This document shows positions 15,556 through 55,085 of a DNA stretch of 64,000 nucleotides, piece after piece; position 1 is the stretch's first letter, and each line of letters starts with the position of its first letter. Position numbers and translations under genes: made by a program. The stretch is from an uncultured Alphaproteobacteria bacterium (GTDB lineage: Bacteria; Pseudomonadota; Alphaproteobacteria; RF32; CAG-239): NCBI GenBank assembly GCA_910577205.1, contig CAJTMA010000007.1, positions 5,373 to 69,372 of the forward strand, written 5' to 3'. The notes below the pieces were generated by a model, which was not told the DNA's origin, searched no databases, and worked only from the letters and a program-made list of their open reading frames with translations.

Positions 15556-16538
15556 TATCACCTAATTATCTATCTCCTTTAGACCAACAAAAAATCGCCC
15601 CTCATTAATGATTGACAGATTACTTTCGATGTGCTATTCTACATTCAGGCTTTGATTCAGTTATATTTGTGAGGTGTATTATGAAAATAATCAGCAAATC
15701 TTTGTTATGGTCTTCGGCATTCTCCTTAGTTCTGCCGCAGACTGCTTTCGCTTCCTTATCTTCGGCGTATGCCTCCCTCGTAGACACAAGCCAAAACCAA
15801 GCCTTTGAATCAAGGCCTGCACAATTTCTTAAATTAGCGGCGGTGCATTTTATCACCAATGACGGCGGTTTGAACTTTGGCGGAAGCAATCCCGGCGGAC
15901 AAGAGTTTAATCCCGGTGACTTATGCAAATCACGGGGCTATTTGCATAAAGGCTGTCCTGCCGGATATATTCCCGGTGAAGCCTGTACCGAAGACAGCTC
16001 CTTTGTTAAAGAATGCATTGACCCGGACACCTGGTGTCGCGGCAATGGATATAATGTAACGTCTTGTACCTTGCCTAAATATTTGTCCGGCAAATGTCCG
16101 CACAGCTCAACCTTATATAAATCCTGTGAAACAGATAATGCCCGGGCTTGCCGAGATGCCGGATATGCCTCCAGTTGTGAGGTCGGCAAAATCGGGGACA
16201 GAGCTTGCCCTTATGACAGTAAATACAAGACTTGCGTGTGTAATCCCTGCGCGGGGTTTGCCTATACCTCAGCACAAGCTTCGGCGCAGGGTTACGTCCC
16301 GGGTGAAGTCTGTAACTCCTGCGGCACAATGAAATACAAACGCAGCGAAGCGCCTTGCGATGGCTTCAAGACTTGCGACTGCGGCGGGGCGACCGGCGCT
16401 AAAACTTGCTGGAGCGGCACGGTCAAAAAGTTTGACACCTGCAAGGAGTGCTGCGACACGTCGAAATATAAATATGATTCTTCAAACTGCACCGGAGGCA
16501 ATCAGCTGGCAGGTAATTCCTGCGGCGGGAAATATGAC
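15556..16538. repeat. left arm of an about 0.98 kb inverted repeat (promoter/5'UTR plus first 930 bp of the Cys-rich paralog gene)
   Basis: Near-identical to the reverse complement of 54099-55085. The encoded N-terminal 309 aa differ at only a few residues. Confidence 0.85.
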
Positions 16539-17156
16539 ACCTGTAAAGCTCCGTTACAGTATTTGTATTCCGATAAGACATTAAGCTCGGAAGTTATTCC
16601 CAGTAAAAGCATTATTGGTATTGCCGTTGATCCCGAAAACAGGCTGGCGGTCGCCATTGATTACATCAAAGGCAAAGAATGGGGCGGTTACAAAACAGAT
16701 ATTCCAACTTTGGAAAATACGCCCAAAGCCGGGGCTGGTGTTTATGTCAGAGAAGAACGGAAAACTTATGGTATCAGAGATGGTAAGGCCAATACCGCTA
16801 AAATACTAGCTTACGGACGAACCAGCGGTACACCATATCCTATGGCTGAGGCTGCGAATAATTATCAGCCCAGCGCTTGTTCTGCAAGCAGCTGGTGCGG
16901 CAAGGGGAATTGGTATTTACCGTCAAACTGGCAGGTATTCCCTTATTTTGACAACCGAGAAACCATTCTTAATATGTTGGAAGCAATTGGTAAGTTACCG
17001 AATGACTGGTGGTATACAAAAGATGATTTTTATATTCAAACCTCTAATGAAATTAACGCCAGTGAAGCCGGATTTATTTACATCAATATCGGGCTAATGG
17101 CCCATGGCGCTAAAAACAATGACCAAGCGCTAGGATTAATATATATAACTTATTAA
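15681..17156 (+). CDS. secreted Cys-rich protein, paralog A: signal peptide, about 200 aa Cys-rich module, C-terminal DUF1566/Lcl-C-like domain
   Basis: Start placed at MKIISKSLL with RBS gaggtg. The signal peptide ends at FASL. About 40 Cys in the N-terminal half. C-terminal GNWYLPS..W motif resembles the DUF1566 W-x-LP-(S/T) signature. Confidence 0.7.
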   Translation: MKIISKSLLWSSAFSLVLPQTAFASLSSAYASLVDTSQNQAFESRPAQFLKLAAVHFITNDGGLNFGGSNPGGQEFNPGDLCKSRGYLHKGCPAGYIPGEACTEDSSFVKECIDPDTWCRGNGYNVTSCTLPKYLSGKCPHSSTLYKSCETDNARACRDAGYASSCEVGKIGDRACPYDSKYKTCVCNPCAGFAYTSAQASAQGYVPGEVCNSCGTMKYKRSEAPCDGFKTCDCGGATGAKTCWSGTVKKFDTCKECCDTSKYKYDSSNCTGGNQLAGNSCGGKYDTCKAPLQYLYSDKTLSSEVIPSKSIIGIAVDPENRLAVAIDYIKGKEWGGYKTDIPTLENTPKAGAGVYVREERKTYGIRDGKANTAKILAYGRTSGTPYPMAEAANNYQPSACSASSWCGKGNWYLPSNWQVFPYFDNRETILNMLEAIGKLPNDWWYTKDDFYIQTSNEINASEAGFIYINIGLMAHGAKNNDQALGLIYITY

Positions 17157-17166
17157 TTGCCATATT

Positions 17167-17198
17167 AAAACTCCGGGAAAATTCCCGGAGTTTTGTTT
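17167..17198. terminator. bidirectional terminator (aaaactccgggaaaattcccggagtttt)
   Basis: Perfect palindrome between convergent genes. The core is shared with the terminators at 53370 and 63885. Confidence 0.6.
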
Positions 17199-17199
17199 T

Positions 17200-18843
17200 T
17201 TATTTGCCCAATCGTTCCAAGTCATAAGGATAGTTGACATCAAGCAAAATATTCTCATCACCTTTCACTAGTTTTGTATAATCTGAATGCTCCATAAACA
17301 CCGGACGCAAATCAGCATTTTCCGGAACTAAATCCGCCACATCATAAAGTGATTTGCTCCAAATAGCCGGGTTGGATTTAATCCCTTTGACAGCTGCGGT
17401 TACCAGCTGTTTTTCTGCTTTTTTATCAAAAGTCTTAATCATTTTATTGATAAGTTCCGGCGTTATGTTCGGCATATCTGCCGGCAACAGCAAGACACCA
17501 TCGCAAAAACCCGGCACGGATTTGACACCCAATGCAATGCTGGTACGAAGCCCCGAACGATAACCTGAATTATAAATAATGTTGACATCGACATCTTCCA
17601 AAGCTTCTTCTAATTCTGCGGCATGGTCGCCGGTAATAACAAAGACAGGACTGGCCTGAGAACGTACCGCGGCTCTGACTGCCCGCAGAAACAAAGGCTC
17701 TCCCTCAACATCATACAAGAGTTTATTGCGTCCGGTCCGGCGTCCCACTCCGGCAGCCAAAATCACCGCTGCAATATTAGCACTCCCCGGTTTGGTTTTA
17801 GTATTGGCACGGATTAAATCCGCATCAGCGTCACCGTTGAATTTCTGTCCCGGATTAAGCCGGATATTCTGCGGATGTTTAAAATCCGCCGGGCTGATTT
17901 TCTCATTTACCAATGCCAGTTTGATATAATGATCGGCCAATGCGCTGTCTGTACTGTCATAATTAAATGGCAGCATAATGATTTTTTTATCGCGTTTACT
18001 GGCAATCAACAAATCTGACGCTCCGGTTTGGGGAATGGCATAAGCCGCAACTTCATCCGCCACACTGCGGACTGCCGTTGCAACAGTATCGTCCTGACAG
18101 CTGTTTCTTCGACCCGAAATGATAAAAACAACTTGGGCATCACTTTTTAAAGCCGCTTCCAAAGCATCGGCAATTTTTTCAACTTCATGTGGCGCTTGAT
18201 ACTCTGCCCCAAAGCCGAGTTCCAGCAGTTGAAACTGTTTTACCAATTTGGTGACAACTGCTGTCAAATGCACTGTTTCGGCGTTATCATTATAAAATTT
18301 GGTATAAAGCAGCGCTGCTTTTTGTTGTTGAGGCTGCATGACGCTTAACAGCGGCGTATTACCTGACAGGCTGAAGATAATATTATCTGTCTGTTCCACT
18401 GAAATAACCGGAATAGTCAACTCCAGTTGCGCAATTATATCACCTTTTTTTACCGACGTATAAGGCGGTAACGTATTCAGGATAACCTCCGGCGCAAGAC
18501 GATTAAATTTGGCTATCCGGTCATCCGCGGCAACAAATATGCCGTCGCTGTCAGCAACAATTGAACTTATACCGCTGTTTTCTGTCGCAAAGGCCGTATT
18601 TGCGCCGCAGAGTTTACCGCTGATAATACCCAAGGCCGTCACATTATCCAAATCATTTTCGTCCATCTCCGCGCCGAAAATACGTTTAATCCCCGAAAGT
18701 TTGAGCTGGAGAATATCTTCATCGTCAAGTTCATGGCCTTTGGGTAACACCATTCCGTCAAGACGCACCGGCTCAGACAAACGGATGCCTTTCGCCTGAT
18801 TGACATTATATTCTTGATATTTCATGTTCTGCCTTTGCTGCAT
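17200..18843 (-). CDS. fusion protein: N-terminal molybdopterin-binding-like region plus C-terminal MobA/MocA-like nucleotidyltransferase
   Basis: 547 aa. The C-terminus AAVILAAGVGRRTGRNKLL...LLPADMP matches the NTP_transf_3 (MocA/MobA) signature. N-terminal assignment is weak. Confidence 0.45.
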   Translation of the reverse strand: MQQRQNMKYQEYNVNQAKGIRLSEPVRLDGMVLPKGHELDDEDILQLKLSGIKRIFGAEMDENDLDNVTALGIISGKLCGANTAFATENSGISSIVADSDGIFVAADDRIAKFNRLAPEVILNTLPPYTSVKKGDIIAQLELTIPVISVEQTDNIIFSLSGNTPLLSVMQPQQQKAALLYTKFYNDNAETVHLTAVVTKLVKQFQLLELGFGAEYQAPHEVEKIADALEAALKSDAQVVFIISGRRNSCQDDTVATAVRSVADEVAAYAIPQTGASDLLIASKRDKKIIMLPFNYDSTDSALADHYIKLALVNEKISPADFKHPQNIRLNPGQKFNGDADADLIRANTKTKPGSANIAAVILAAGVGRRTGRNKLLYDVEGEPLFLRAVRAAVRSQASPVFVITGDHAAELEEALEDVDVNIIYNSGYRSGLRTSIALGVKSVPGFCDGVLLLPADMPNITPELINKMIKTFDKKAEKQLVTAAVKGIKSNPAIWSKSLYDVADLVPENADLRPVFMEHSDYTKLVKGDENILLDVNYPYDLERLGK

Positions 18844-18914
18844 TTATCCTGCTTTTATATAACATAACCACAGAATGAAAAAAAGGAAAGTTCAAAATGA
18901 ACTTTCCTCTCAAT

Positions 18915-19316
18915 TCAGGGTTTGAGCGTAAAGGCCTCCTTTACCGAACCGTTAAAGGTTACCGAAACACCTACGCCTTCCCGAGCACCCAATACAGTTA
19001 CCACAATCGTATGAGTGACAAAACGTCCGGGGATAAACTCATCCGCAACATAGGTTTTCTCAAAGCGGTAAGTTTTAGGCGTATCCCGCGGAATATACTG
19101 ATCTGCTACCCACGCACTGTTTTTATAACGGTAAACTTGCAAATATGTCTCATGGGATTCTATTCGCAAATTTCCCCACTGCAGCGCTACAATTTTATTG
19201 CTGTTGTACTTTTCAGTGGTTACCGTGGTTTGTTTAGACGTGGTATAAATCTGTTGGGCGAGCATACAAGATGCTCCGGCGATGATTAACATCATCGTAA
19301 CTAAAAACTTTTTCAT
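18915..19316 (-). CDS. small secreted protein (133 aa, signal peptide)
   Basis: MKKFLVTMMLIIAGASCMLAQQ signal peptide. No recognisable domain. Confidence 0.4.
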   Translation of the reverse strand: MKKFLVTMMLIIAGASCMLAQQIYTTSKQTTVTTEKYNSNKIVALQWGNLRIESHETYLQVYRYKNSAWVADQYIPRDTPKTYRFEKTYVADEFIPGRFVTHTIVVTVLGAREGVGVSVTFNGSVKEAFTLKP

Positions 19317-19336
19317 AATAATAAAAATTTAAATGG

Positions 19337-19804
19337 TTATTCTAAATCATATTCTTCGGCAATGTGGTTTCCTGCCATTTTGAAGACGACAGCTTCACAG
19401 TCAGCAACGATAATGCCTACCTTGTATGAAACCGTACCGCCGGGAACTTGGGCTTTGGCCGTGTAAATCTGTTCGCTGTCATACAACTTGGAAATCAGAG
19501 CCAGACGGCTGCGACTGCCATTGTATTGGCGATAAACATCTACACGATCTTTACTGTTGACGATAACCATATCGCCGATAGTAATTTTTTTGACTTTTCG
19601 GCCGACTACCCGAACTTCTGTTGTGCCGCGGCTGTATGTTTTCACAGGGGATAATCTTTTCAAATCATTCCCGGTATTAACAACACGACGGCAAGCTTCT
19701 TCAGCTCGGTTCATCTGGCCGATAAAACGGTCAAACTTGTCTTGAGCCGAAAGCGAGAAAATGCTGAGCATCAGTCCCGCCAAGAGAAATAATAGTTTTT
19801 TCAT
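19337..19804 (-). CDS. small secreted protein (155 aa, signal peptide)
   Basis: MKKLLFLLAGLMLSIFSLSAQ signal peptide. Tandem to the previous ORF. Confidence 0.4.
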   Translation of the reverse strand: MKKLLFLLAGLMLSIFSLSAQDKFDRFIGQMNRAEEACRRVVNTGNDLKRLSPVKTYSRGTTEVRVVGRKVKKITIGDMVIVNSKDRVDVYRQYNGSRSRLALISKLYDSEQIYTAKAQVPGGTVSYKVGIIVADCEAVVFKMAGNHIAEEYDLE

Positions 19805-19876
19805 TTTGTAAAATAATTAGTGTTTATGCATAAATTTTAGCACTAATTATCTTATTCGTCCAGTTTTTTAGATAAA

Positions 19877-20707: not shown

Positions 20708-20780
20708 TTATAGATTCTCCCCCTTCTGTATAGACGGGAAGTGTAACACGCGGCTATCAAAAAGTAAACGGGAGAAATGA

Positions 20781-21353: not shown

Positions 21354-21387
21354 AAAAACTCCCCTCTGCTAGAGAGGGGAGTTTTTT
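21354..21387. terminator. bidirectional intrinsic terminator (aaaaaactcccctctgctagagaggggagtttttt)
   Basis: Perfect 9 bp GC-rich stem flanked by A6 and T6. It marks the left edge of the AT-rich island. Confidence 0.65.
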
Positions 21388-21618
21388 AATGGTGATGCAC
21401 TTTGCGAACCCATCGAACTGGTCTAACTGTTCGCAAAATGTTGTATATAAACGCCTTGAGATAGGAATATACTTCTGCGAATCAACCGATTTTTCTCTAG
21501 AATCACTTTTCTCGTATCTCGAACTTATCTAAATTCTAAAATATTTTTTAATATATCAAGAGTAAAATAATTCCTGTATTTTTTTGCATATTTCATAAAT
21601 TTATTTTAACAAATTCGG

Positions 21619-22005
21619 TTACATAATTTTTAAATCTTGTTTTATATTACTTATAAGTTTTTCTATTTTATTATAAATATTTTCATCTGGAGTAGTTTGT
21701 ATTTCTTTTTGCAATCTTATGTATTCTTTTGCGATTTTTGAGGATGCATATAACTTAATATAAGGAACTGTGGAATTTATTTTTTCTTTTACCTCATTGC
21801 AAGGATCGCCTTTAAGAAGCCATTTCAAATCTGTACCTATGGAAATAAGGCAATCAATAGCTTTTAAGTATGTTTCTTCCCGTTTCCTAAGGATATATAT
21901 TTCTTGTTCTCTGGCACTTTTTAGATAATCAATAAACAATGTAAAAAAAGCTGTAATAAGTGAACCAATTATTACACCTATCAAACCAATTATAGCCTCA
22001 TCCAT
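21619..22005 (-). CDS. hypothetical membrane-anchored protein (128 aa, one N-terminal TM)
   Basis: N-terminus IIGLIGVIIGSLITAFFTLFIDYL. Located 30 bp downstream of the NucC-like gene in AT-rich DNA. Confidence 0.4.
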   Translation of the reverse strand: MDEAIIGLIGVIIGSLITAFFTLFIDYLKSAREQEIYILRKREETYLKAIDCLISIGTDLKWLLKGDPCNEVKEKINSTVPYIKLYASSKIAKEYIRLQKEIQTTPDENIYNKIEKLISNIKQDLKIM

Positions 22006-22035
22006 TTCTTTATATCTCCGATATTTAAAATTTTA

Positions 22036-22743
22036 TTATTCAGAAAATCCATTAAAATAACGAGGAATATCCATAGCAGGAACCGTTCCCATTTGCTGTA
22101 ATTGATTTAATAATTCCATAAAAAATGATAATAGATAATGCTCTTTATTATTGCACCAAATGTACTTTCCATTATGGAATTTCCAGCAACAATCTTCAGC
22201 ACAACATCCAATATTCAATAATCCCACATTGTTATTTGAAATATTTTGTTTGATAAGGCATTTTTGCCATGAGTTTCTAGTCGTTAATAAACCACCTAAA
22301 ATAGTATGAGGTGTCCTTCCTTGAGTTTTTATACCAGCATTAAAAATAGAAGCACTTGTACGTTCTAAACTCCGAGCCGATGATACTTTTTTCATAGCGT
22401 ATTCAAAATTTTGTTTATTTAGCTCAGGCTTTACTTCAAATACCGCATAAACACTTTCAGCTGGAATAAAAACATTGTCACGACAGTGGAATAAAAAAGG
22501 TGAGAAATAATTATCAAATATTACAATATCTAATTGCTCACTAAGATTATTATTACAGTCAATTATGAATGCTTTTTTTACATCATAACGTTTAGGTAGA
22601 TGGTCTCTAAATAAATTAAGCCATTGTTCTTCAGTGTAATTTCCATTTTCTCCGGGATGCTCTATAGGATTTTGTATCAGAGAAGCTTTCATAGCTTCTT
22701 GTTTTCCCTTAAATAAGGTTTCCAATGTGACAGAACTCACCAT
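22036..22743 (-). CDS. PD-(D/E)xK restriction-endonuclease-fold protein, NucC-like candidate CBASS effector nuclease
   Basis: 235 aa. Putative catalytic segment LDIVIFDNYF...PAESVYAVFEVKPE (D..D...E-V-K) at residues about 72-105, with a Cys-rich C-terminal half. Start overlaps the upstream nucleotidyltransferase gene by 7 nt. Confidence 0.5.
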   Translation of the reverse strand: MVSSVTLETLFKGKQEAMKASLIQNPIEHPGENGNYTEEQWLNLFRDHLPKRYDVKKAFIIDCNNNLSEQLDIVIFDNYFSPFLFHCRDNVFIPAESVYAVFEVKPELNKQNFEYAMKKVSSARSLERTSASIFNAGIKTQGRTPHTILGGLLTTRNSWQKCLIKQNISNNNVGLLNIGCCAEDCCWKFHNGKYIWCNNKEHYLLSFFMELLNQLQQMGTVPAMDIPRYFNGFSE

Positions 22744-23525
22744 ATAATATCTCTCCAGTTTAATCCACCTAAAATAGTCAATCTATTATTTAGGCAATTA
22801 ACCGCTGTTTTTTGAATTATTAGCTTTTCTTGGCGGTTTAACTCATTTGAAATGATATTAGCAGAATTTCCAGGATCTATTATGATATCATCAATAAAAT
22901 CAGTAGCAAAATAATTTAAAACTTTAGTGAATTTTTCCTCAATATTATAAGCCCTATTATATTTTAAGGCATTTATTGTTGCAAATTCAATTAATACAGA
23001 AGGGCATTCAATAGAATGACAATTTCTCCATATTTTAACTAATTTAATAACATCCTGATAAAAAGATTTTTGTATAGTATTGATTTGTAAGCTGACATTA
23101 GTCTGTGTCCGTCGTCCCGTTTTGGATTGATATAGCCAATGGTAACTAGAACCATAAGGCTGTGCTTTAGCTGGGACTAAATCGACATTAATTGGTTGAC
23201 CATTCTTATTTAAATCAATACCAATAGAAACATTTTGTTTCCTTGGATGAAAATTTTTTTCAACCATTTTATTATATAATGTATCGTAAATATCTTCACA
23301 GCTAGTTGGACACTCGTGTTTTATAGATATAAAAATATCAATATCCGATTTTCCTTTTATGGAAGTTCCTTTAGCAGAGGAACCAGATAAAAATATATCT
23401 CTGATATAAGTATTACCCCATTCAGTTAGAGTAGGACGCAAAAATGCTAACACTTCATTATAGAGGTAAGTGTTATTTACATAATATTTTTGTAATACTT
23501 CGTTTAGATAAGACATTTGCTTCAT
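22737..23525 (-). CDS. minimal CD-NTase/SMODS-like nucleotidyltransferase (candidate cyclic-oligonucleotide synthase)
   Basis: 262 aa. GSSAKGTSIKGKSDIDIF fits GS-x11-DhDh (Pol-beta/cGAS-DncV-like NTase motif). The third acidic residue lies in NVDLVPA. A downstream LVKIWRN helix follows. Confidence 0.55.
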   Translation of the reverse strand: MKQMSYLNEVLQKYYVNNTYLYNEVLAFLRPTLTEWGNTYIRDIFLSGSSAKGTSIKGKSDIDIFISIKHECPTSCEDIYDTLYNKMVEKNFHPRKQNVSIGIDLNKNGQPINVDLVPAKAQPYGSSYHWLYQSKTGRRTQTNVSLQINTIQKSFYQDVIKLVKIWRNCHSIECPSVLIEFATINALKYNRAYNIEEKFTKVLNYFATDFIDDIIIDPGNSANIISNELNRQEKLIIQKTAVNCLNNRLTILGGLNWRDIIW

Positions 23526-23604
23526 CCTAATGATATTAATCGTATATATTTATATTATTAAAATAAAGATACAAGCTTCAAATCTTTTTTGAGAGGTGTT
23601 GTAT

Positions 23605-23982
23605 CTAGTCATCTAGACCGTTACTTTTGAGGAATTCTTTGAGCCTTTCCCGGTTTTCATTTTCCTGATCACCCTTATAATAAATCTCAATAAATGAAAT
23701 CAGTTGTTTTTCTTCTTCCCAAACAAAAATAACCCGAATGCCAGATGCAGCTCCTTTTCCCTTTAACGACATACATGAGAATTTACGAACTTTATTTGCT
23801 GTATAATTTTCTCCGCAACACCCTTCTATTGGAACAATGGCATTAGAAACTATTTTATGAATATACAAGGCTTCAATACTGGCCCTTTTCATAATTTCAA
23901 AATCATTAGGTAAAGTTCTGAAGCGTTTTGTGAGTTTCTTAAAATCTTTATCAAATTCAGGAATAGTCAGATAGTTAAGCAT
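23605..23982 (-). CDS. RelE/ParE-superfamily toxin (PanT-like candidate)
   Basis: C-terminal GIRVIFVWEEEKQLISFIEIYYKGDQEN matches the RelE/ParE hallmark. Start chosen at MLNYLTIPEF. The ORF track extends further upstream, so the start is uncertain. Confidence 0.55.
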   Translation of the reverse strand: MLNYLTIPEFDKDFKKLTKRFRTLPNDFEIMKRASIEALYIHKIVSNAIVPIEGCCGENYTANKVRKFSCMSLKGKGAASGIRVIFVWEEEKQLISFIEIYYKGDQENENRERLKEFLKSNGLDD

Positions 23983-24748
23983 ATTCTTCGTCATACTCCC
24001 GTTGAGATGTCTCGGCAGTTCTATAAAAAACGCTTTCATATTCAAGAATTTCCTTGTCCTTTGCAATAATCCAAGGAATGTCTTTATGGGAAAAATCAGA
24101 TAACTCTTTACCTGTTTTATCTGATAGACGTTCTAGTTCTTTATCAATATGTCTTAATTCTTGGGCAGAAAGCAAAGATAAATTAGGCTCCTTAATTGGA
24201 AGATATTTCGTTTGATCTTTCTTAAAATATTTTGTTTTAACTTCTTCTAGTTCTCCGTTTTTTTCCATTTCCTGAATAAGTTTTGCAAAATCCACAGGAG
24301 TAGGACCGTAAGTGTTTTTAATATATTTTAACCCCATAAGCTGTTCCTCATAAAGCTCATAATAGTCAAAATCAATAAAATATAACAACTTATAAATAAC
24401 GGTTTGACCAACATTAGGTTTGGCACCAACTTTATTAAGAATATAAAGTAAAACTTGTTTAAATTTTGTAATATTTTCCCGAGGAATATCAATACGAATA
24501 TCGTTTTGAGTGGAGGAAACAACTTTTTCTATAATGTTATATGTCGGCCTGTTTGGCATTTTATTATCAATAATACACGAGTAATCGACATCAAAAATAT
24601 CCGCTAATTTTTTAATGATATCGATGGGAAGATTGTTTTCTCCATTTTCATATTTGCTTAAGGTTTGGCGCGTTATTCCTAACTGAGACGCCAAATCGTC
24701 CTGTGAGATATTTTTTTCGTCTCTCAGGACTTTCAAAATTTTAAACAT
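23975..24748 (-). CDS. HTH-XRE plus Panacea (DUF4065) domain antitoxin-like protein (PanA-like)
   Basis: 257 aa. N-terminal HTH_3 (LASQLGITRQTLSKYENGEN). Central KLLYFIDFDYY...YGPTPVDF resembles the DUF4065/SocA-type signature. Confidence 0.6.
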   Translation of the reverse strand: MFKILKVLRDEKNISQDDLASQLGITRQTLSKYENGENNLPIDIIKKLADIFDVDYSCIIDNKMPNRPTYNIIEKVVSSTQNDIRIDIPRENITKFKQVLLYILNKVGAKPNVGQTVIYKLLYFIDFDYYELYEEQLMGLKYIKNTYGPTPVDFAKLIQEMEKNGELEEVKTKYFKKDQTKYLPIKEPNLSLLSAQELRHIDKELERLSDKTGKELSDFSHKDIPWIIAKDKEILEYESVFYRTAETSQREYDEEYA

Positions 24749-24791
24749 TTTAAGCTCCTATTTATTATTTATTTGAATATAATACAAAAAC

Positions 24792-24815
24792 GTTAAAATG
24801 TCAATATATTTTAAC
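24792..24815. promoter_or_regulatory. inverted repeat gttaaaat-N8-attttaac upstream of the HTH-Panacea gene (putative autoregulatory operator)
   Basis: Perfect 8 bp arms in the promoter region, with a ttgaatataat -10-like element nearby. Confidence 0.3.
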
Positions 24816-24942
24816 ACATAGGTGTAAGCGGAGTTTAACTTGAATTTGTAGATAAAAAACTCAACCAATCTTTAGGAATGCAAATACTTTTTAATTTTTT
24901 ATATCCGTATTGTATCAAATAATATATTATAAAAAATCTTTC

Positions 24943-26337
24943 CTATTCATCATTTGATAAATATTCCATTTTTTGTTTTAAGTATGGAATTATTCTTTGA
25001 GCATCTATTCCAAATCTACTATCAAGATCATCATGCAGTTGATATACCTTATGATAATCAGTTAGTTCTTTTAGAATTTCATCTTGTGTTATTGGCGTAT
25101 TGGGATTAGTTTGCTTTTCGATATTAAGTTGAGTATTTTTTTCTTTCAACTCATTAATTTTTTTGCATAGATCATTAAAAGGAATCATAGCCATCATTAA
25201 ACAATGTTTTAAACATTTTATATTTTGATCATTTGCATTAACTATTTTTTCAAGTTCCTTCCATAAATCATAAAAAGATATTCTTTCTATGTTTTGGTAG
25301 ATTGAGTATTTTTTATGTTTTAAAACCATTAAGAGTGCAAGTATAGGGCTCATTTTTAAATAATTATCAGGTACAACTTTTTGTATAATTGCAATATCTG
25401 TAAAACATTGGCTTATTTCTCGTAACGATAAATTATACCCATCTGCCAAAATAGAAAAATAATCACAATAACAATTCCATCCGTTTATTATACTATTAGC
25501 ATCATAAGCTTTTTGATTTTTTATACCAAATTTATTCATTAATACTTTGCAAAAAGCTTTTCTATTAGGTTTGGGTAAATGTAATTCTAAATCAACAAAT
25601 CTTTTAAGATAGCCTTCACTATCCATATCAGAACCATATAAAGCTGAAATAGTATGTTTTAATTGTGTCCTATCAATTCCTAAAATAAATATGACATTAG
25701 GGATATCAAATATATGTTTAATTGTTTCTAATACTTCAACAGCATATGTTGGACGACATCTTTCTAATTCATCGACAAATATAAACAGTTTATTATCTTT
25801 TATTTTCTCACAAAGCGTATTTCGGAAATCATTGATAAGTTTTTGTTTGGCTTCATATTGTTCAATTTTATTATCGGGATTTACAATTTGTAATAGCTTA
25901 TCTAATGTACTTTCAGGTCCGCCAACACATTCAATAATCAAATTGCCACAATTTTTTATAGACTTTAATAGTCCTATACTTTTTTCTTTGAGTATTGTAC
26001 CAATACTTTCTGGGAATGAATCTATAATTGTTTTTATAAATGGAACCATAGGGTCTTTTTCCCAATCTGTATTCCATGCATTAAAAAAAGCAACCTGATA
26101 TCCATCTTTTTTTAATTGTTCTCGCCATCTGCTCAGAAAAAAACTTTTTCCCATGCCATATGAAGCATCTACAGAAACGACAAAAGGTTGTTCAACATCC
26201 GCTAATATGCGGGTAAAATCTTCCGCAACTTCTTTGCGGTTAAGAATATCATCTTTCCAAATATCTTGTGTATCAATTTCTAGATCCTGAATTTTTTGGC
26301 AAATACTCATATCGTTTCCTTTTATTGCTATCAACAT
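24943..26337 (-). CDS. KAP-family P-loop NTPase
   Basis: 464 aa. Walker A SYGMGKSFF followed by the FNAW motif typical of KAP NTPases, then a Walker B region IFVDELERC. Confidence 0.7.
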   Translation of the reverse strand: MLIAIKGNDMSICQKIQDLEIDTQDIWKDDILNRKEVAEDFTRILADVEQPFVVSVDASYGMGKSFFLSRWREQLKKDGYQVAFFNAWNTDWEKDPMVPFIKTIIDSFPESIGTILKEKSIGLLKSIKNCGNLIIECVGGPESTLDKLLQIVNPDNKIEQYEAKQKLINDFRNTLCEKIKDNKLFIFVDELERCRPTYAVEVLETIKHIFDIPNVIFILGIDRTQLKHTISALYGSDMDSEGYLKRFVDLELHLPKPNRKAFCKVLMNKFGIKNQKAYDANSIINGWNCYCDYFSILADGYNLSLREISQCFTDIAIIQKVVPDNYLKMSPILALLMVLKHKKYSIYQNIERISFYDLWKELEKIVNANDQNIKCLKHCLMMAMIPFNDLCKKINELKEKNTQLNIEKQTNPNTPITQDEILKELTDYHKVYQLHDDLDSRFGIDAQRIIPYLKQKMEYLSNDE

Positions 26338-26409
26338 CTGTTAAATTAACACAAAATTTTATCTGATAAACTTTAATTTATTAGATATTAAAAGCTTTGT
26401 AGCTAAAAC

Positions 26410-27715
26410 AGCACCAGATTTGGTGCTGTTTAATAATAGATATTCCTTTGAAATACAATAAAATTCTCTTGTAAATATTAATGCAAAGGAGAATAAAAAT
26501 GGGAATGTCAAAATTTACTCAGGAAATTAAAAGTGAAATTGCAGAAAAATACAAAAAAGGAGCGGATGTTATTTTGTTGTGCCAAGAATATGGCATCTCC
26601 AGAAGTTACCTATACAGGATTGTCAAGCTAAAAAAGAAACATCGAAATCCGCATCAAAAAAGCACATATACCCTCTGGGATATAGAATTTATGAAAAGAG
26701 AGTTGATGACGCTTAAAACAGAAAATGAGATTTTCAGAAAAAGCGGTTGTGGATTGAGTGCTTCTAATGATGAGAAAATAGCCGTAGTTGAAAAGTTAAA
26801 AGATGAATATTCCATACATATCATTTGTAAAACGTTAGGATTACTAAAATCAACATATTATCACAGAATAATGAGGGCTCCGGAAAAGAAATGGTATGAA
26901 ATTCGCAATGAAACGCTTAAGCCCGAGATTCTTGAAATATTTAAAGAGAGCAAAGAACGTTTCGGAGCTCCCAAGATAAAAATAAAATTGGAAGAAAAGG
27001 GGATCGCGGCAAGTATTGAAACTGTTGCGAAACTAATGAAAGAAATGGGATTGATTTGCAAACAGAATTGTGTAAAGAAACATAATCCGACAAAAAACTA
27101 TTATGCATCTCCTCTAAACATATTAGAACGAAATTTCAATCCGGATGCTCCAAACAAGTGTTGGGTAAGCGACATCTCTTATATGAATACTGATGGAGGA
27201 TGTTGTTATATCTGTGTTGTGTTGGAGCTTTTTTCAAGAAAAGTTATTGCATATAATGTTTCTGACAGAATTGATACAGATTTGGTTTTAACAACTTTTG
27301 ACAAAGCGTATTTTGACAGGGGCAATCCTAAAAATCTGATTTTTCATTCAGACCAAGGAACACAATATACTTCTTCTAGATTCCAATATGCCTTACAGAA
27401 GAACAATGTTCGTCAATCGCTTTCAAAACCGGGAACGCCGTATGACAATGCGGTAATGGAACGATTTTTCAAATCGATAAAATATGAGTGTTTAAAACAT
27501 AAAACCTTTCAAAACATAGATGAATTGAGGACAACTGTTGAAGAATATATAAATTATTACAACGGAATGAGACCGATGAAAACGCGGGAAAATCTGCCTC
27601 CTAATGAATTTGAACGGCGATATTTTGAGAAAACGGCGTGTTAAGATTATGATTTAAACGAATAAAGCTCCGTAAAACGGAGCTTTATTTTGTAGACCTA
27701 GTCTACTAAAAAGAG
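26410..27715 (+). mobile_element. IS3-family insertion sequence (approximate boundaries)
   Basis: Contains a single fused transposase ORF. Terminal inverted repeats could not be defined by eye; both flanks share a ttgtag motif. Confidence 0.35.
26481..27644 (+). CDS. IS3-family transposase (fused OrfAB, HTH plus DDE/rve integrase core)
   Basis: 387 aa. N-terminal HTH and leucine zipper (ELMTLKTENEIF), HTH_21-like region (ERFGAPKIKIKLEEKGIAASIETVAKLMKEMGL), and a DDE core (WVSDISY, HSDQGTQYTS, MERFFKSIKYE). Confidence 0.8.
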   Translation: MQRRIKMGMSKFTQEIKSEIAEKYKKGADVILLCQEYGISRSYLYRIVKLKKKHRNPHQKSTYTLWDIEFMKRELMTLKTENEIFRKSGCGLSASNDEKIAVVEKLKDEYSIHIICKTLGLLKSTYYHRIMRAPEKKWYEIRNETLKPEILEIFKESKERFGAPKIKIKLEEKGIAASIETVAKLMKEMGLICKQNCVKKHNPTKNYYASPLNILERNFNPDAPNKCWVSDISYMNTDGGCCYICVVLELFSRKVIAYNVSDRIDTDLVLTTFDKAYFDRGNPKNLIFHSDQGTQYTSSRFQYALQKNNVRQSLSKPGTPYDNAVMERFFKSIKYECLKHKTFQNIDELRTTVEEYINYYNGMRPMKTRENLPPNEFERRYFEKTAC

Positions 27716-27740
27716 TCTAAAAAAGCCTCTTACTTACAAA

Positions 27741-27816
27741 TGGTGAGCGCGTCGGGATTCGAACCCGAGACCCTTTGATTAAAAGTCAAATGCTCTACCA
27801 GCTGAGCTACGCACCC
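27741..27816 (-). tRNA. tRNA-Lys (anticodon TTT)
   Basis: Manual fold: acceptor GGGTGCG/CGCGCTC, D-arm GCTC..GAGC, anticodon stem TTTGA/TCAAA with loop CTTTTAA, T-arm TCGGG-TTCGAAT-CCCGA, and an encoded 3' CCA. Confidence 0.85.
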
Positions 27817-44063: not shown

Positions 44064-44576
44064 TTAGACTTCCCAACTACGGGAAAACTCTTCGTCTTTA
44101 AATAACGATGCCAAGCCGGTTATTTGTTTGAGGCGCAGCACTTCATCGGCAGACATTCCGATATTGCGGCAAATCCACGAATCGCTTTTGCCCATTTCCA
44201 ACAACTCGGCAACAATGTTGCTCATCAAATCTACATTGTGACTACCGCGCGCACGGTTATGGCGGATGGTAGAAGCCATACGATCGCCCAGCGGTTTGTC
44301 AATCACAACAACAGGCATCAAGCCGCGTTCCCGCTCATAAATACGCGGGCTGGTCATCATTGTGGTATAGCGGTGGAAGCCGTCAACGACGATATATTCA
44401 TCATTTTCTTTATCATAATAACAAACAATCGGCTGGGTATAACCATCCTCCCAGATGGAAATTTCCAGCAATTTCATTTCCGGAGGAGCTACACGGTTCG
44501 GGTTGTAGTCGTTAGCTTTAATTTTTTCGACTGGAATAGCCTGTACATTATAGACCGGACTCTTAAATTCACTCAT
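44064..44576 (-). CDS. ParB-like nuclease domain protein (IbrB/YbdM-like)
   Basis: 170 aa. ParB-N/sulfiredoxin-like core VEKIKANDYNPNRV...IVVDGFHRY. Confidence 0.65.
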   Translation of the reverse strand: MSEFKSPVYNVQAIPVEKIKANDYNPNRVAPPEMKLLEISIWEDGYTQPIVCYYDKENDEYIVVDGFHRYTTMMTSPRIYERERGLMPVVVIDKPLGDRMASTIRHNRARGSHNVDLMSNIVAELLEMGKSDSWICRNIGMSADEVLRLKQITGLASLFKDEEFSRSWEV

Positions 44577-44586
44577 TAGTCATTCC

Positions 44587-45924
44587 TCACAAATTACGAT
44601 ATTTTTCCATTAATTCCCGTTCACGCTCCGCCTGTTTTTTGGTTTGGGTAAAGCCCATATATTTGCAGAGGTGGTCATTTTTCAAGATACAGACCGCCAT
44701 ACGCTTCCATGACGGAATGTCGATAGATGATTTGATGTCATCCGTGTTGTCCGGCGTTCCGAGAAAACGAATTTTATCGCGCGTTTTATTGTAACCGCTC
44801 GGACCGTTATGGCGGATGGGATAGTTACAATCCTCCAATTCTTTCAATGCCGCTTCATTAACCACGCCGCCTTTTTTCCACCAAAAACGAATGGAGGTTT
44901 TGAATTTGGCAACATAGTTCTGGCGCATACTTTCAGGAAGCGTCGCCAGCAAAAACTTGACATAAGAACGCCAGGTATGCCCCGGAGGAAGCGTAAACTT
45001 GCGAGCGCCTAAAGCTTTGGTATTGCCATAAATAGCTCCAAAATTAGCACCCTGCACCCGCCCGACAACGCGAATCCATGTATCCGGCTCTAAGACGCGA
45101 TATAAGTTCAAGCTGTCTTTGGCACTTTCATGGTAAGGGCTGGCAACGCGCATTTGGTTAATTGACAAACCGGCCTTATAGAAGAGGTCATAAATGTGGT
45201 TATAATCATAGTCATATTTGCCGTTAGCGACCCAGACATCCTTGGTTGTCCAGTCATACAGCGGATAAGCATGGTAGAAGTCCTTGCCCATTTTAGTCGT
45301 CCATTTGCCTTCGCCAAAACTGGTTTTCCGTTCGTTGGCATAGGCTCTGTATCGGTTCAGGGATTCATCGGCGCGAATGCCCAGCAGGCAGATTGTTGTC
45401 CCTTCATGCTGTCTGGCATACCATCTGCCAAATTCTGCATAAAAGTCTTCCTGCGGCATTTTATATTTATAAAAATCAAAGTTATGGTTTTCCAACTTGA
45501 TAATGTAGTCCTGCTTAGGCATAGAGCGCACCCAGGCGGCTTTTTTATCCGGGTCCCATGTATACCAATACATTTGGTAATTGCTTACAGCACAGCGCGA
45601 GGCCTGCGGAATGCAGACCCAATAAGGCTCAATATCATTAATATTGTTTTCAAACATACGGGTAACATAATCCGTTGTTGTCTGGTATTGCGCTTCAAAA
45701 TCCTGGTGGAAAACGCCGATTTTCTTCTGGATATTATTACGGCGTTTATAATCCAGCACCATGTTGAGCAGCAGGCCGCTGTCTTTGCCGCCGGAGAAAG
45801 ACACATAAATATTGTCAAAGTTATCAAATATATATTTCAAACGAGCCTGTGTCGCCTCGTACACATTGATATCCAAATATTTTTTCACAGTCGCAATGCC
45901 TCCTCTTTCGTAATCATATGGCAA
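44587..45924 (-). CDS. PAPS-reductase-family ATP pyrophosphatase, IbrA/YbdN-like (DUF3440-like C-terminus)
   Basis: 445 aa. PP-loop SFSGGKDSG near the N-terminus, with a long C-terminal extension. Gene order with the ParB-like and LysR genes mirrors E. coli ybdN-ybdM-ybdO. Confidence 0.65.
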   Translation of the reverse strand: MPYDYERGGIATVKKYLDINVYEATQARLKYIFDNFDNIYVSFSGGKDSGLLLNMVLDYKRRNNIQKKIGVFHQDFEAQYQTTTDYVTRMFENNINDIEPYWVCIPQASRCAVSNYQMYWYTWDPDKKAAWVRSMPKQDYIIKLENHNFDFYKYKMPQEDFYAEFGRWYARQHEGTTICLLGIRADESLNRYRAYANERKTSFGEGKWTTKMGKDFYHAYPLYDWTTKDVWVANGKYDYDYNHIYDLFYKAGLSINQMRVASPYHESAKDSLNLYRVLEPDTWIRVVGRVQGANFGAIYGNTKALGARKFTLPPGHTWRSYVKFLLATLPESMRQNYVAKFKTSIRFWWKKGGVVNEAALKELEDCNYPIRHNGPSGYNKTRDKIRFLGTPDNTDDIKSSIDIPSWKRMAVCILKNDHLCKYMGFTQTKKQAERERELMEKYRNL

Positions 45925-47141
45925 ACGTTTGACAGAACGTTCTTTTTGCGTTCAAGGTTATCATTAATCAGTTGTTCCAAATTGGTTTTTACCCAAAAGT
46001 CATAAATGTTTAGTTTACGGGCAATGCCTTTGCTGCTGATGCTGTCCAACCCTTCCACCTTACATTTATAATCAAAAGTCTGTGAAAAATATATAATATT
46101 ATTACACAATTGCATATCTAAACCGAATTTATCAACACCATAAGTGCAAAACATGATATCGGCATGACGCTCAAACTCTTTGATGGCTTTACGCTTGTTG
46201 GATTTGCCGGTTAACTCGACAAATTTGACATCCCCGAAAAATTTACTTTCTTTGAAAAAAGTAATTTCATCTAAAAACTTAATAAAAATAATAACTTTTT
46301 CCCCTCTGGCCAAAATCTGTTTAACCAGCTCCCGCAAGGCTTCCAGCTTGTTTTGTGACAGCGTATACATCCGCTGGAAATTTTGCACAACATCCATAAA
46401 CGCTACCTGTTCCCGCTCTTGCAGAAAGAGATTTTTTTCATCATTATAACTTTCTTCTTCACGCGGTGTCAGTTCAAAATATTGGTTCCTGTGGGTAATT
46501 TCGATTTCTTCTCCGAAATCATACCCCAAGACATAGGGTTTTATGTATTCAAAAAGGCGTTGTTCGTCTTCAGGGCGCGACCACTGCTTTATGACAAGAT
46601 AGTTACTATAGCTGGAAGGCATAAAGATATGACCGAACTGGTTTTCATTCATACGCAAAATCCGCGTATCCAGAAATTCTATTTGCGAATATAAATCAAT
46701 TAATCCCTGTGTCAACGGTATACTGCTCAATATCAGGCGGTAACTGAATTTAGAACTTAAGGAAAGAAGGCGCTGTGTTCGGCCAGCTTCTGTGTTTTTG
46801 ATGGTAATACTTTCGTCTACAACGCAAAAAATTTTAAAATTATGGATTAAATTATAAAGCTCTAGGTACTTCTCATCAGAAACAGACACACTCTCTATTG
46901 AATAAAAATATATGCGGTGGCGGAAAGTGCGGTTGTTCTTTTTAATCTCATTCATATAAGAACGAGTCGCCAGAAATCCTGACGGGGCTATCCAAATAAT
47001 AAAATCAACCTCGTCCAGTTTTTCTTCAACCAAAGCCAAGGCCATTTGAATTTTTTTAACGGCTTGGTTTATGAATAAAATGCCCGATCGCAAATCGCTT
47101 AATTTTTGGTGAGCTGCCATCAATACATCATCTTTTATCAT
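45885..47141 (-). CDS. SNF2/DEAD-like helicase core fragment lacking motif I (possibly N-terminally truncated)
   Basis: 418 aa. DExx box CVVDESI, SNF2 motif III-like LILSSIPLTQG, and helicase-C motifs (KVIIFIKF..., VELTGKS, FCTYGVDKFGLDMQ). No Walker A. Only 147 bp separate it from divergent flgI. Confidence 0.5.
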   Translation of the reverse strand: MIKDDVLMAAHQKLSDLRSGILFINQAVKKIQMALALVEEKLDEVDFIIWIAPSGFLATRSYMNEIKKNNRTFRHRIYFYSIESVSVSDEKYLELYNLIHNFKIFCVVDESITIKNTEAGRTQRLLSLSSKFSYRLILSSIPLTQGLIDLYSQIEFLDTRILRMNENQFGHIFMPSSYSNYLVIKQWSRPEDEQRLFEYIKPYVLGYDFGEEIEITHRNQYFELTPREEESYNDEKNLFLQEREQVAFMDVVQNFQRMYTLSQNKLEALRELVKQILARGEKVIIFIKFLDEITFFKESKFFGDVKFVELTGKSNKRKAIKEFERHADIMFCTYGVDKFGLDMQLCNNIIYFSQTFDYKCKVEGLDSISSKGIARKLNIYDFWVKTNLEQLINDNLERKKNVLSNVCHMITKEEALRL

Positions 47142-48419: not shown

Positions 48420-48420
48420 G

Positions 48421-49247: not shown

Positions 49248-49257
49248 GAGTTGAATC

Positions 49258-51450: not shown

Positions 51451-51462
51451 GAGGACTGAATT

Positions 51463-53367: not shown

Positions 53368-53369
53368 CC

Positions 53370-53399
53370 AAAGCCCGGGAAATTCCCGGGCTTTTTTTT
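53370..53399. terminator. bidirectional terminator (aaagcccgggaaattcccgggcttttttt) between convergent flgL and Cys-rich paralog B
   Basis: Perfect palindrome. Same core as the terminators at 17167 and 63885. Confidence 0.6.
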
Positions 53400-53405
53400 C
53401 GACAG

Positions 53406-54956
53406 CTAGTATTTTATCATTGGAAGGACATGACTTGAGTACATACTTTTAAACAGTTCAGATGTTTCTCCCATTTTCATATTGAAATTACAATAATAAT
53501 TATATTTGCTATTGTTGTGATTAGAGGACATATAGCCGTTCATATAGTCATCAAAAACAATATCTTGGGCTTCTGGTATTAACTTTAAGGTGTTTTTGGT
53601 TGTTTCCTTATTGTTGTAGAATATTTGCAATTCATGGAGGCTTGGCACAAACCAATTTCCTTTGCTGCACCAACTGCCGGAGGAGCATCCCTTTGCCGGC
53701 TGATAATTGTTGGCAAATTCGGCGGCATTAAAGGTTAAACCACTTGTTTTTCCATAAGCCAGTATTTTTGCTGTATTGTCTTTGCCGCTGGAGGCAACGC
53801 AAGAAACGCTGCATTCGGGGCAATCTTCTAAGCCCGGAATATCCTTATAATCGCCCCATACTCGGCGCGCACTTCCACATAAATATAAACAATGTTTTAT
53901 AGCTCTTTCTTCTGTAACACCTTTCTTATTTTGCTCATAGCAATTGTCAAATGTTGTTTGGTCATATGAGTAATAATTAATCGCAGCGGCAATTCTAAGG
54001 TTTGCATCAACCACAACCCCGATGGCAATTTTATTGGGCAGATATTGGCTGGATGTTGTGCGGTCGGAATAAAGGATTAAGCCCGGTTTGATACATTTGT
54101 CATACTTCCCGCCACAGGAATTACCTGCCAGCTGATTGCCTCCGGTGCAGTTTGAAGAATCATACTTATACTTCGACGTGTCGCAGCACTCCTTGCAGGT
54201 GTCAAACTTTTTGACCGTGCCGCTCCAACAGGTCTTAGCGCCGGTCGCCCCGCCGCAGTCGCAAGTCTTGAAGCCATCGCAAGGCGCTTCGCTGCGTTTG
54301 TATTTCATTGTGCCGCAGGAGTTACAGACTTCACCCGGGACATACCCCTGCGCCGAAGCTTGTGCTGAGGTATAGGCAAACCCCGCGCAGGGATTACACA
54401 CGCAGGTCTTGTATTTACTGTCATAAGGGCAAGCTCTGTCCCCGATTTTACCGACCTCACAACTGGAGGCATATCCGGCATCTTGACAAGCCCGGGCATT
54501 ATCGGTTTCACAGGATTTATATAAGGTTGAGCTGTGCGGACATTTGCCGGACAGGTATTTAGGCAAAGTACAGGAAGTTACGTTATATCCATTGCCGCGA
54601 CACCAGGTGTTCGGGTCAATACATTCTTTAACAAAGGAGCTATCCTCGGTACAGGCTTCACCGGGAATATATCCGGCAGGGCAGCCTTTATGCAGATAGC
54701 CTCGTGATTTGCACAAGTCACCGGGATTAAACTCTTGTCCGCCGGGATTGCCGCCGCCAAATTTTAATCCGCCGTCATTAGTGATAAAATGCACTGCCGC
54801 TAATTTAAGAAATTGTGCAGGCTTCGATTCAAAGGCTTGGTTTTGGCTTGTGTCTACGAGGGAGGCATATGCCGAAGATAAGGAAGCGAAAGCAGCCTGC
54901 GGCAGAACTAAGGAGAATGCCGAAGACCATAACAAAGATTTGCTGATTATTTTCAT
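53406..54956 (-). CDS. secreted Cys-rich protein, paralog B: signal peptide, Cys-rich module, divergent DUF1566/Lcl-C-like C-terminus
   Basis: Start placed at MKIISKSLL (54956). The first 309 ORF residues are nearly identical to paralog A. C-terminal GNWFVPSLHELQIFY matches the DUF1566 W-x-LP-(S/T)-x-x-EL motif. Confidence 0.7.
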   Translation of the reverse strand: MKIISKSLLWSSAFSLVLPQAAFASLSSAYASLVDTSQNQAFESKPAQFLKLAAVHFITNDGGLKFGGGNPGGQEFNPGDLCKSRGYLHKGCPAGYIPGEACTEDSSFVKECIDPNTWCRGNGYNVTSCTLPKYLSGKCPHSSTLYKSCETDNARACQDAGYASSCEVGKIGDRACPYDSKYKTCVCNPCAGFAYTSAQASAQGYVPGEVCNSCGTMKYKRSEAPCDGFKTCDCGGATGAKTCWSGTVKKFDTCKECCDTSKYKYDSSNCTGGNQLAGNSCGGKYDKCIKPGLILYSDRTTSSQYLPNKIAIGVVVDANLRIAAAINYYSYDQTTFDNCYEQNKKGVTEERAIKHCLYLCGSARRVWGDYKDIPGLEDCPECSVSCVASSGKDNTAKILAYGKTSGLTFNAAEFANNYQPAKGCSSGSWCSKGNWFVPSLHELQIFYNNKETTKNTLKLIPEAQDIVFDDYMNGYMSSNHNNSKYNYYCNFNMKMGETSELFKSMYSSHVLPMIKY

Positions 54957-55085
54957 AATACACCTCACAAATATAACTGAATCAAAGCCTGAATGTAGAA
55001 TAGCACACTGAAAGCAATCTGTCAATCATTAATGAGGGGCGATTTTTTATTGGTCTAAAGAGGATAGATAATTAGGTGATAAAAT
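54099..55085. repeat. right arm of the about 0.98 kb inverted repeat
   Basis: Reverse complement of 15556-16538 (promoter plus 5' coding region). Confidence 0.85.

Follow-up and report, generated by a model that had tools for sequence, protein, structure and literature searches.

The shared 5' module of a dispersed gene family in an uncultured gut alphaproteobacterium: concerted evolution and a probable role as a recombination breakpoint

A stretch of 64,000 nt from an uncultured alphaproteobacterium (NCBI GenBank assembly GCA_910577205.1, contig CAJTMA010000007.1, positions 5,373 to 69,372 of the forward strand; hereafter the window, at its full length) contains two long and almost identical sequences in inverted orientation, each covering the upstream region and the first part of one of two paralogous protein-coding genes, A and B. 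The question raised by this locus is whether the pair forms a cassette in its own right, made for inverting or converting the roughly 37.5 kb that it brackets, as was proposed from the letters of the window without database searches (hereafter the sequence-only reading), or whether it belongs to something larger. The explanation that we favour, and regard as probable when taken as a whole, places A and B in a dispersed gene family that evolves in concert, with the 5' modules shared by its members acting as breakpoints of homologous recombination.

The inverted pair and the family to which it belongs

When the whole window was compared with itself, a single inverted pair was obtained, made of arm A at 15553–16545 on the forward strand and arm B at 54092–55084 on the reverse strand, each of 993 nt and separated by 37,546 nt; no further repeat of 60 nt or more was found in the window. 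An ungapped comparison of the arms counts 47 mismatches and no indels (95.3% identity), with a longest exact run of 111 nt, and both edges are sharp, with identity at background level only a few bases past the outer edge (15552/55085) and at about 55–60% past the inner edge (16546/54091). The sequence-only reading had placed near-identical repeats at 15556–16538 and 54099–55085, which is right to within 7 nt, and the 95.3% obtained over 993 nt in the self-alignment that it had proposed lies above the limit of about 90% that it had set for itself. The abrupt divergence that it described downstream, with homology retained, is equally borne out, protein identity being only 42% there. Its "handful of substitutions", by contrast, underrates the 47 nucleotide differences; in the reading frame that it used, the codon differences are 33 synonymous and 9 nonsynonymous. 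Inverted, hundreds of base pairs long and highly identical, the two arms have the properties of a substrate for homologous inversion.

How much of each arm is coding depends on the start codon. The true start of gene A is almost certainly the ATG at 15681 and not the TTG at 15612, because all homologues begin at the former with MKIISK..., because a GAGG ribosome-binding site lies 6 nt upstream of it, and because a promoter-like –35/–10 element falls inside the supposed first 10 codons. With this start, the repeat consists of a 128-nt leader followed by 288 codons, so that the 309 shared codons of the sequence-only reading become 288, and Y4C and R6Q, listed there as protein substitutions, would both be changes in a promoter spacer. 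Arm A is accordingly the conserved 5' module of the family (leader plus codons 1–288 of gene A), with identical edges in every dispersed copy, and arm B is the same module, leader and codons 1–288, at the head of gene B.

The leader was examined in an alignment of 15 copies. Homology between the copies sets in at the outer edge of the module. A conserved box, AATTATCTATC (15564–15574, forward strand; B copy 55073–55063), lies at this edge and is followed by a perfect 10-bp palindrome, TCATTAATGA (15602–15611, forward; B copy 55035–55026), which abuts the –35 element and is invariant in all 15 copies compared. The palindrome may be the operator of a regulator and, given its invariance, suggests one regulator for the whole family. 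The promoter-like site itself, TTGACA-17 nt-TG(C)TATTCT (15612–15640, forward; B copy 55025–54997), is sigma-70-like, has 10 of 12 consensus matches and an extended –10, and would place the transcription start at about 15647; across the copies the –35 and –10 hexamers are invariant and the spacer is variable, and the 5' untranslated region (5'UTR), the ribosome-binding site (GAGG, 15671–15674, forward, 6 nt before the ATG; B copy 54966–54963, with a GAGGTG match at 54966–54961) and the ATG are likewise the same in all 15. The leaders of arms A and B differ at 6 of 128 nt, and the variable parts of the family leaders by up to about 25%. Judged from these motifs, every copy of the module looks capable of autonomous expression from its own putative promoter. 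A scan of the leader against Rfam returned chance matches only (E 0.28–0.67, far under the gathering scores).

The two arms are not a self-contained cassette placed around a special segment. A homologue search gave 163 proteins, all from uncultured Alphaproteobacteria of gut metagenomes, that have their N-terminal approximately 290 residues in common and C-termini of very different lengths, and at least six family genes are present in one metagenome-assembled genome (MAG) at NCBI (locus tags OSJ76_), so that A and B are two of at least six dispersed members. A module of about 985–993 nt, always starting about 120 nt before the ATG and ending at a common 3' edge, recurs at unrelated chromosomal sites: after nadE (contig L001), hemN (L011, L014, L127), enolase (L012, L015–L022, L125), polA (L013) and a fadL-like gene (L122), and, in the window, after a nagZ-like gene and after malQ. 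At least seven upstream contexts were seen within the species, with the copies located between unrelated housekeeping genes. The family to which A and B belong is, in short, spread over the chromosome of an uncultured alphaproteobacterium of the gut. An origin of the copies as mobile elements was considered and rejected, as no transposase or recombinase accompanies them and their flanks are housekeeping genes. A scan of genome contigs found only distant relatives (24–46% identity, including Ca. Scatocola), and the matches from a scan of metagenomes came for the most part from a human-gut sister species and not from conspecific strains; they served for the between-species comparison given below.

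Concerted evolution of the module

The divergence between genes A and B changes in a single step at the end of the module. Over codons 1–288, synonymous divergence (dS) is 0.20 and nonsynonymous divergence (dN) 0.011, with dN/dS about 0.055, while from codon 289 onward the proportion of synonymous differences (pS) is 0.77, that is, saturated, dN is 0.63 and protein identity is 42%. The comparison between species runs in the same direction. The N-terminal parts of A and B are 97.6% identical and those of the paralogues of the human-gut sister species 96–99%, whereas between the two species the identity is 67%; for the C-terminal parts, hereafter the heads, A-type heads are 76% identical between the species, and the A and B heads only 43% within one genome. 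Paralogues are thus more alike than orthologues inside the module and less alike outside it. As an A-type head is closer to its counterpart in another species than to the B head beside it, the heads predate the species, and homogenisation of the modules has proceeded separately in each lineage. Within genomes, module DNA is 90–99% identical and heads 30–45%, and in one human-gut assembly the paralogues on two contigs of 312 and 320 kb share only a 757-nt module, at 99.9% identity.

Exchange between copies is also visible as mosaicism. Among 15 module copies, 1967 of 3916 informative site pairs (50%) fail the four-gamete test, and the minimum number of recombination events (Rm) is at least 27; the copies are mosaic and contain discrete tracts, in data that consist of short-read assemblies. 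The clearest tract, an apparent gene-conversion tract of 292 nt (15812–16103, forward strand), emerges from a near-clonal strain (GCA_949347555.1, contig L103), in which a stretch of 21,071 nt differs from the window at 19 positions, all of them inside this interval. Six other contigs have 0–1 mismatches in 7–13 kb of flank and 0–61 in the portion of the module that they cover, with no module mismatches in L120 and L121, which enter arm B by only 301 and 14 nt.

These data support well a homogenisation that is family-wide, patchy and ongoing, that is, concerted evolution, in which gene conversion among copies would repeatedly overwrite patches of the module and keep the paralogues alike, while the heads stay diverse. 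The sequence-only reading had proposed gene conversion of the 5' halves with diversifying C-terminal domains, and that part stands; its description of the conversion between A and B as recent does not, module dS being 0.20. As a separate observation, on the sister-species contigs L023–L035 and L053–L056 the paralogues share only a module of 750–1030 nt, at 96–99.9% nucleotide identity, and many contigs of this species terminate inside the module.

Alternative junctions and their explanation

In the REARRANGEMENTS comparison, contigs were considered whose flanks are 97–100% identical to the window or to one another, and among these a given upstream flank was found with several heads and downstream flanks, and vice versa. 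The nagZ flank leads to the A head and the mobA-like gene (window, L103 and two others) or to head P10 and uvrA-ssb-gyrA (L123, 276-kb contig); nadE leads to A (L001), to P10 (L124) or to a third, longer head (L025); malQ to the B head and flgL (window) or to P10 (L109, L126); enolase to P10 (L012, L125) or to head P138 and valS (more than 20 contigs); hemN to B and flgL (L014) or to head P6 and trx-addAB (L011, L127 and one more); and fadL to P10 (L122). The head linked to uvrA accordingly has five different upstream flanks, and the protein that it encodes is identical. Four of these junctions, nagZ–A, nadE–P10, nagZ–P10 and nadE–A, are all four that are expected from one reciprocal exchange.

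In some contigs the point of exchange can be placed. In L125, a single switch between enolase-type and P10-type parents, within an interval of 16 nt, explains 409 of 409 informative sites, and because every final assembly k-mer is longer than this interval, the reads must contain the junction k-mers. The switch points vary among contigs (at about 15710, 16160 and 16260, and at about 16450 for arm B against its parents), a scatter that is as expected for homologous, not site-specific, recombination. The sister species repeats this at nadE, which is joined to one head in L024 and to another in L029. Synteny across species suggests that nadE with an A-type head, and fadL with a P10-type head followed by uvrA, are the older pairings and, if the former is so, the nagZ–A junction of the window would be derived. 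The general idea of the sequence-only reading, that the repeats are substrates for recombination, thereby gains ground, as copies of the module lie exactly at the synteny breaks between close strains.

It is likely, in our judgement, that the alternative junctions are real rearrangements. Long and similar as they are, the copies of the module would undergo reciprocal homologous recombination with one another. Each crossover in a module would join upstream flanks to other heads and downstream flanks, and near-clonal strains would come to differ by large rearrangements of the chromosome, in the simplest case inversions; both RecA dependence and an origin of the junctions by inversion are what we infer from the sequences. 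Such rearrangements would be tolerated because every product is an intact gene with its own promoter-like site. The A/B pair would be one potential substrate among the family's copies, and its inversion possible. A bolder version, which we hold to be doubtful, is that heads are continually swapped genome-wide by frequent crossovers in the invariant core of about 100 nt around the start codon, even in near-clonal gut populations. Under it, at least seven leader or promoter contexts might be re-paired with at least seven lectin-like heads, varying the expression strength of each, and the chromosome might, as a side effect, exist in many arrangements, as a protein-gene analogue of the genome types driven by rRNA (rrn) operons; the stalk, the cysteine-rich part encoded by the module, might at the same time evolve fast between species and be kept uniform within a genome, a picture about which we are just as reserved.

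Several points weigh against the recombination breakpoints proposed here. All comparators are short-read metagenome assemblies or MAGs, and most contigs stop at the module, a minority crossing it. The junctions nadE–A, hemN–B, nagZ–P10, fadL–P10 and the malQ–B junction of the window are single observations. L014 and arm B of the window need more than one switch or look mosaic, so that their original crossovers are not reconstructable, and in L123, L122 and L126 the leader and the coding part differ from the leader that the same flank has elsewhere, with an apparent break near the outer edge of the module, which is odd for a homologous crossover. Exact look-ups of the nagZ-like, MalQ and FlgL-like proteins found neither a nagZ–B nor a malQ–A junction in any crossing contig, in a small sample in which the nagZ flank is joined four times to A and once to P10, and the malQ flank once to B and twice to P10. 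GC skew has one sign throughout (–0.050 in the interior of the pair, –0.032 and –0.093 in the flanks), as does the predominant gene strand, which argues against frequent flipping of the 37.5-kb segment. As to the nature of the proteins, A and B have no match in Pfam or NCBIfam at E ≤ 1 (in Pfam with the N-terminal module included), and their functional label depends on homologues and on a weak fold match.

The most serious competitor, unlikely in our estimate, accepts concerted evolution and holds that the alternative junctions, with part of the mosaicism, are assembly chimeras formed in a multi-copy repeat of 1 kb. Most contigs do stop right at the module (43 of 72 blocks on the nagZ flank, 20 of 22 contigs on the flgL side), strains with 0–1 single-nucleotide polymorphisms (SNPs) in 7–13 kb of flank would need several rearrangements, the five upstream flanks of the unchanged uvrA-linked protein are what such chimeras could produce, and exact runs between copies, the longest of which measure 61–728 nt (median 116), could confuse assembly graphs of small k. 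However, the switch intervals (16, 23, 37, 45 and 63 nt) are mostly shorter than the final k (55–119) and than the reads, so that the junction k-mers must be in the reads; malQ–P10 recurs in one MEGAHIT and one SPAdes assembly, enolase–P10 in two samples of the Joint Genome Institute (JGI), hemN–P6 in three and enolase–P138 in more than 20; contigs of 250–276 kb cross the module; and the re-pairing at nadE in the second species repeats the pattern. A dedicated site-specific recombinase, shuffling the family at a fixed site in the leader as a programmed variation system, appears improbable. The invariant edge box and the perfect palindrome of every leader, the apparent breaks in or at the edge of the leader in L123, L122 and L126, and a XerC-like tyrosine recombinase gene at 3565–4512, 11 kb from arm A, would all suit it; against these stand switch points spread over the whole module, patchy internal mosaicism of a kind typical of homologous gene conversion (Rm at least 27), and the promoter-like site and start codon of each copy, which leave nothing to switch. 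No recombinase gene was found beside any other copy, the XerC-like gene being the sole one linked to a copy, and no fixed crossover site was found; an enzyme acting in trans would remain compatible with this.

It is very improbable that the A/B pair forms an invertible cassette of its own with a function for the flip (phase or antigenic variation, or regulation of the lipopolysaccharide (LPS) and flagellar genes), even if inverted repeats of 993 nt with 95.3% identity are present and a flip would exchange the heads between two leaders. The inversion of the 37.5-kb segment was not found in any module-crossing contig, neither of its two product junctions being among them; the interior resembles the flanks in the sign of GC skew and mostly in gene strand; the pair is two of at least six equivalent copies; and the two leaders, with 6 of 128 nt different, carry the same promoter-like site, so that a flip would give two intact, expressed genes and no on/off switch. 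The reading as a dedicated inversion cassette does not hold. Finally, conservation of the 5' half solely by strong purifying selection on the stalk, with no gene conversion, could appeal to the module dN/dS of about 0.055 and to a cysteine pattern that is nearly invariant across 68 homologues. Selection on the protein cannot, however, hold dS at 0.20 beside a saturated head, nor keep a non-coding leader at 95% identity; nor does it explain why paralogues are 97–99% identical within a species against 67% between species while orthologous heads stand at 76%, or why a 292-nt tract is the sole difference between two strains over 21 kb. On this tract, the dS step and the identities within and between species, purifying selection alone was rejected, with next to no probability left to it. 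Homologous recombination and gene conversion among the dispersed modules are what we retain.

Proteins, intervening segment and comparable systems

Gene A (15681–17156, forward strand) encodes a protein of 491 aa with a signal peptide, a disordered stretch, a Cys-rich stalk and an A-type head, and gene B (53406–54956, reverse strand) a protein of 516 aa that is built alike and ends in a B-type head. The two genes are convergent, with their shared 5' parts facing outward and their divergent 3' parts inside the 37.5-kb segment. The A-type head, of 203 aa (16545–17153, forward), appears to be an alpha/beta domain of the Lcl_C/DUF1566 kind, and the B-type head has 228 aa (53409–54092, reverse); the two are 42–43% identical in protein sequence. 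A protein identical to the product of gene A is present in NCBI data, on a contig of 71,250 nt, while the product of gene B is identical to P0004, an exact look-up of which found no indexed contig. Gene A is followed by a terminator-like hairpin with a 13-bp stem and a T-run (17166–17195, forward). In the 38-nt gap between gene B and the flgL-like gene, a GC-rich hairpin flanked by T-runs, AAAGCCCGGGAAATTCCCGGGCTTT (53371–53399), is probably a bidirectional terminator shared by these two convergent genes.

An AlphaFold (AF2) model built from the 68 homologues has a mean predicted local distance difference test score (pLDDT) of 79. It comprises a signal peptide, with cleavage after AFA, and a disordered linker of about 50 aa in residues 1–73, an extended series of short beta-hairpins with many invariant cysteines (the stalk) at about 75–290, and a compact alpha/beta head at about 295–491. 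Foldseek against the PDB matched a Bacteroides ovatus fimbrial protein (4eps, E 3.5e-5) and, for the head, weakly, the C-terminal domain of Legionella Lcl (8q4e, E 0.4, TM(target) 0.41), and a sequence profile run against the PDB found nothing meaningful. PF07603 (Lcl_C/DUF1566) is matched by 5 of 13 close relatives (best E 7.8e-6), with a weak match in P0009, to whose head the A and B heads align in BLASTP with E 5e-17 and 2e-15. The sequence-only reading of the heads as DUF1566-like is therefore sustained through homologues, by transitive evidence only, and A and B themselves lack the Pfam match. From sequence and model, both proteins, like the other members, each of which has a different head, are probably stalk-and-head proteins of lectin- or adhesin-like type, with Sec-dependent export and lectin function both putative.

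The segment between the arms (16546–54091, 37.5 kb, no strand assigned) includes the two variable heads. Its content is as previously described, with a lipopolysaccharide or polysaccharide cluster (GDP-mannose dehydratase, DegT, WbqC, glycosyltransferases), a tRNA-Lys island and flagellar genes (flgI-J-N-K-L), together with the MobA-like gene, ABC transporters, prs and mnmA. The island, a variable region of low GC (27–36%) at 21384–27816 beside tRNA-Lys(ttt) (27741–27816), carries genes for DUF6602, NTP_transf_2, an HTH plus SocA_Panacea protein, a KAP NTPase and an IS3-type transposase. Strain L001 is syntenic with the window only as far as position 21383, and RelA_SpoT, GmrSD_N and an Eco57I-type methyltransferase occupy the slot instead; the region looks like a hot spot for defence islands. 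A trio of genes directly beside flgI (44064–47141), with ParB_N, PAPS_reduct/DUF3440 (IbrB/IbrA-like) and SNF2 helicase domains, may be a DNA-modification or defence module.

The surroundings of other family copies vary among strains too. A gene of 424 aa downstream of the enolase-linked member is a tandem duplicate (99.35%) in some strains and single in others (L015 11567–14860 vs L017). The hemN gene upstream of one copy encodes 592 aa with a DUF559 domain in L014 (7880–9658), 509 aa in L011 (8163–9692) and 430 aa in L127 (4035–5711), where it is preceded by a separate open reading frame of 94 aa with a GIY-YIG domain, a variation that suggests homing-endonuclease-like insertion. A stretch of about 0.4–1 kb with a small HTH_31 gene (window 5565–6577), near the XerC-like integrase gene (3565–4512) and rpmG, is 83–94.5% identical to L013 13721–14992, where the context is unrelated and another family member lies 2 kb away; this stretch is possibly a small mobile or toxin-antitoxin-like element.

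Among known systems, the closest analogue is the WiSP/WND family of Tropheryma whipplei, the likeness being one of mechanism only. The WiSP are paralogous surface proteins whose N-terminal WND coding region varies little from copy to copy, with 99% identity over 784 bp for one pair. A large inversion and a 19-kb deletion, both with ends in WiSP genes, distinguish strains of more than 99% identity, and recombination has been proposed to reshuffle these exposed proteins (PMC2078596; Raoult 2003 and Bentley 2003, cited there). The domains are unrelated, with no match to PF07861 (WND) in the N-terminal module of A and B when searched in Pfam, and the host there is an actinobacterial pathogen rather than a gut alphaproteobacterium. 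Unlike in WiSP, the unit shared by the A/B family also includes promoter, 5'UTR and signal peptide; its copies are less identical (88–99%), and the evidence comes from metagenome assemblies instead of closed genomes.

In Campylobacter fetus, the sapA/sapB S-layer homologues studied by Dworkin and Blaser reportedly have a conserved 5' region that begins upstream of the open reading frame, and variable 3' regions. RecA-dependent recombination in the 5' region is said to invert DNA and to pair 5' ends with different 3' bodies, and inversion is said to switch expression, as a single promoter lies on the invertible element and promoterless cassettes are held in one locus. The A/B family differs in that it has a promoter-like site for each copy and copies dispersed round the chromosome; instead of one promoter with several promoterless cassettes, 15 of 15 copies carry –35, –10, ribosome-binding site and ATG. 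Dispersed repeats that rearrange near-identical strains are known from host-restricted serovars of Salmonella, in which rrn operons recombine to yield many arrangements (PMC3107234, PMC2957434). Both cases have a handful of dispersed, concertedly evolving repeats as sites of homologous recombination, and differ in that the Salmonella repeat is an rRNA operon of 5 kb, which makes no protein chimeras, and the repeat of the A/B family the 5' third of a protein gene.

For the design of the proteins, Lcl of Legionella pneumophila offers a parallel, as a secreted protein with a collagen-like stalk and a C-type-lectin-like DUF1566 head that binds glycosaminoglycans or host glycans (PMC11162425; PDB 8q4e). 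The stalk-plus-head design would be common to both and some family members match PF07603, whereas the stalk of A and B is a predicted disulfide-rich array of beta-hairpins in place of collagen repeats, and Lcl is a single-copy gene in place of a multicopy family, of which A and B stay under the Pfam thresholds. The vpma/Xer1 system of Mycoplasma agalactiae is a multigene family of surface proteins with a conserved 5' region that is rearranged by DNA inversion (PMC5634654). The dedicated recombinase, fixed site and single expression site of such systems were not found for the A/B family. Other site-specific parallels to a recombinase-driven shuffling are Mpi of Bacteroides fragilis and the SusC/D shufflons.

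The phenomenon, a 5' module of a concertedly evolving surface-protein family that drives rearrangement, is thus known; the example is new and the protein family is uncharacterised. Not described before, this family of predicted secreted proteins occurs in uncultured Alphaproteobacteria of the gut, in samples from mouse, human and chicken. Its design joins a Cys-rich stalk absent from Pfam and NCBIfam to a lectin-like head, and it shows with unusual clarity a concerted evolution that is limited to a module of promoter plus N-terminus. The locus also illustrates how a conspicuous pair of inverted repeats can turn out to be no more than a local section of a repeat family spread over the genome. 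If the junctions are real, the chromosome of a commensal is rearranged at half a dozen protein-coding repeats in strains with almost no SNPs over 7–13 kb, and this would bear on strain tracking, on the binning of MAGs, on assembly, in which contigs systematically break at the module, and on the diversification of surface lectins in the gut.

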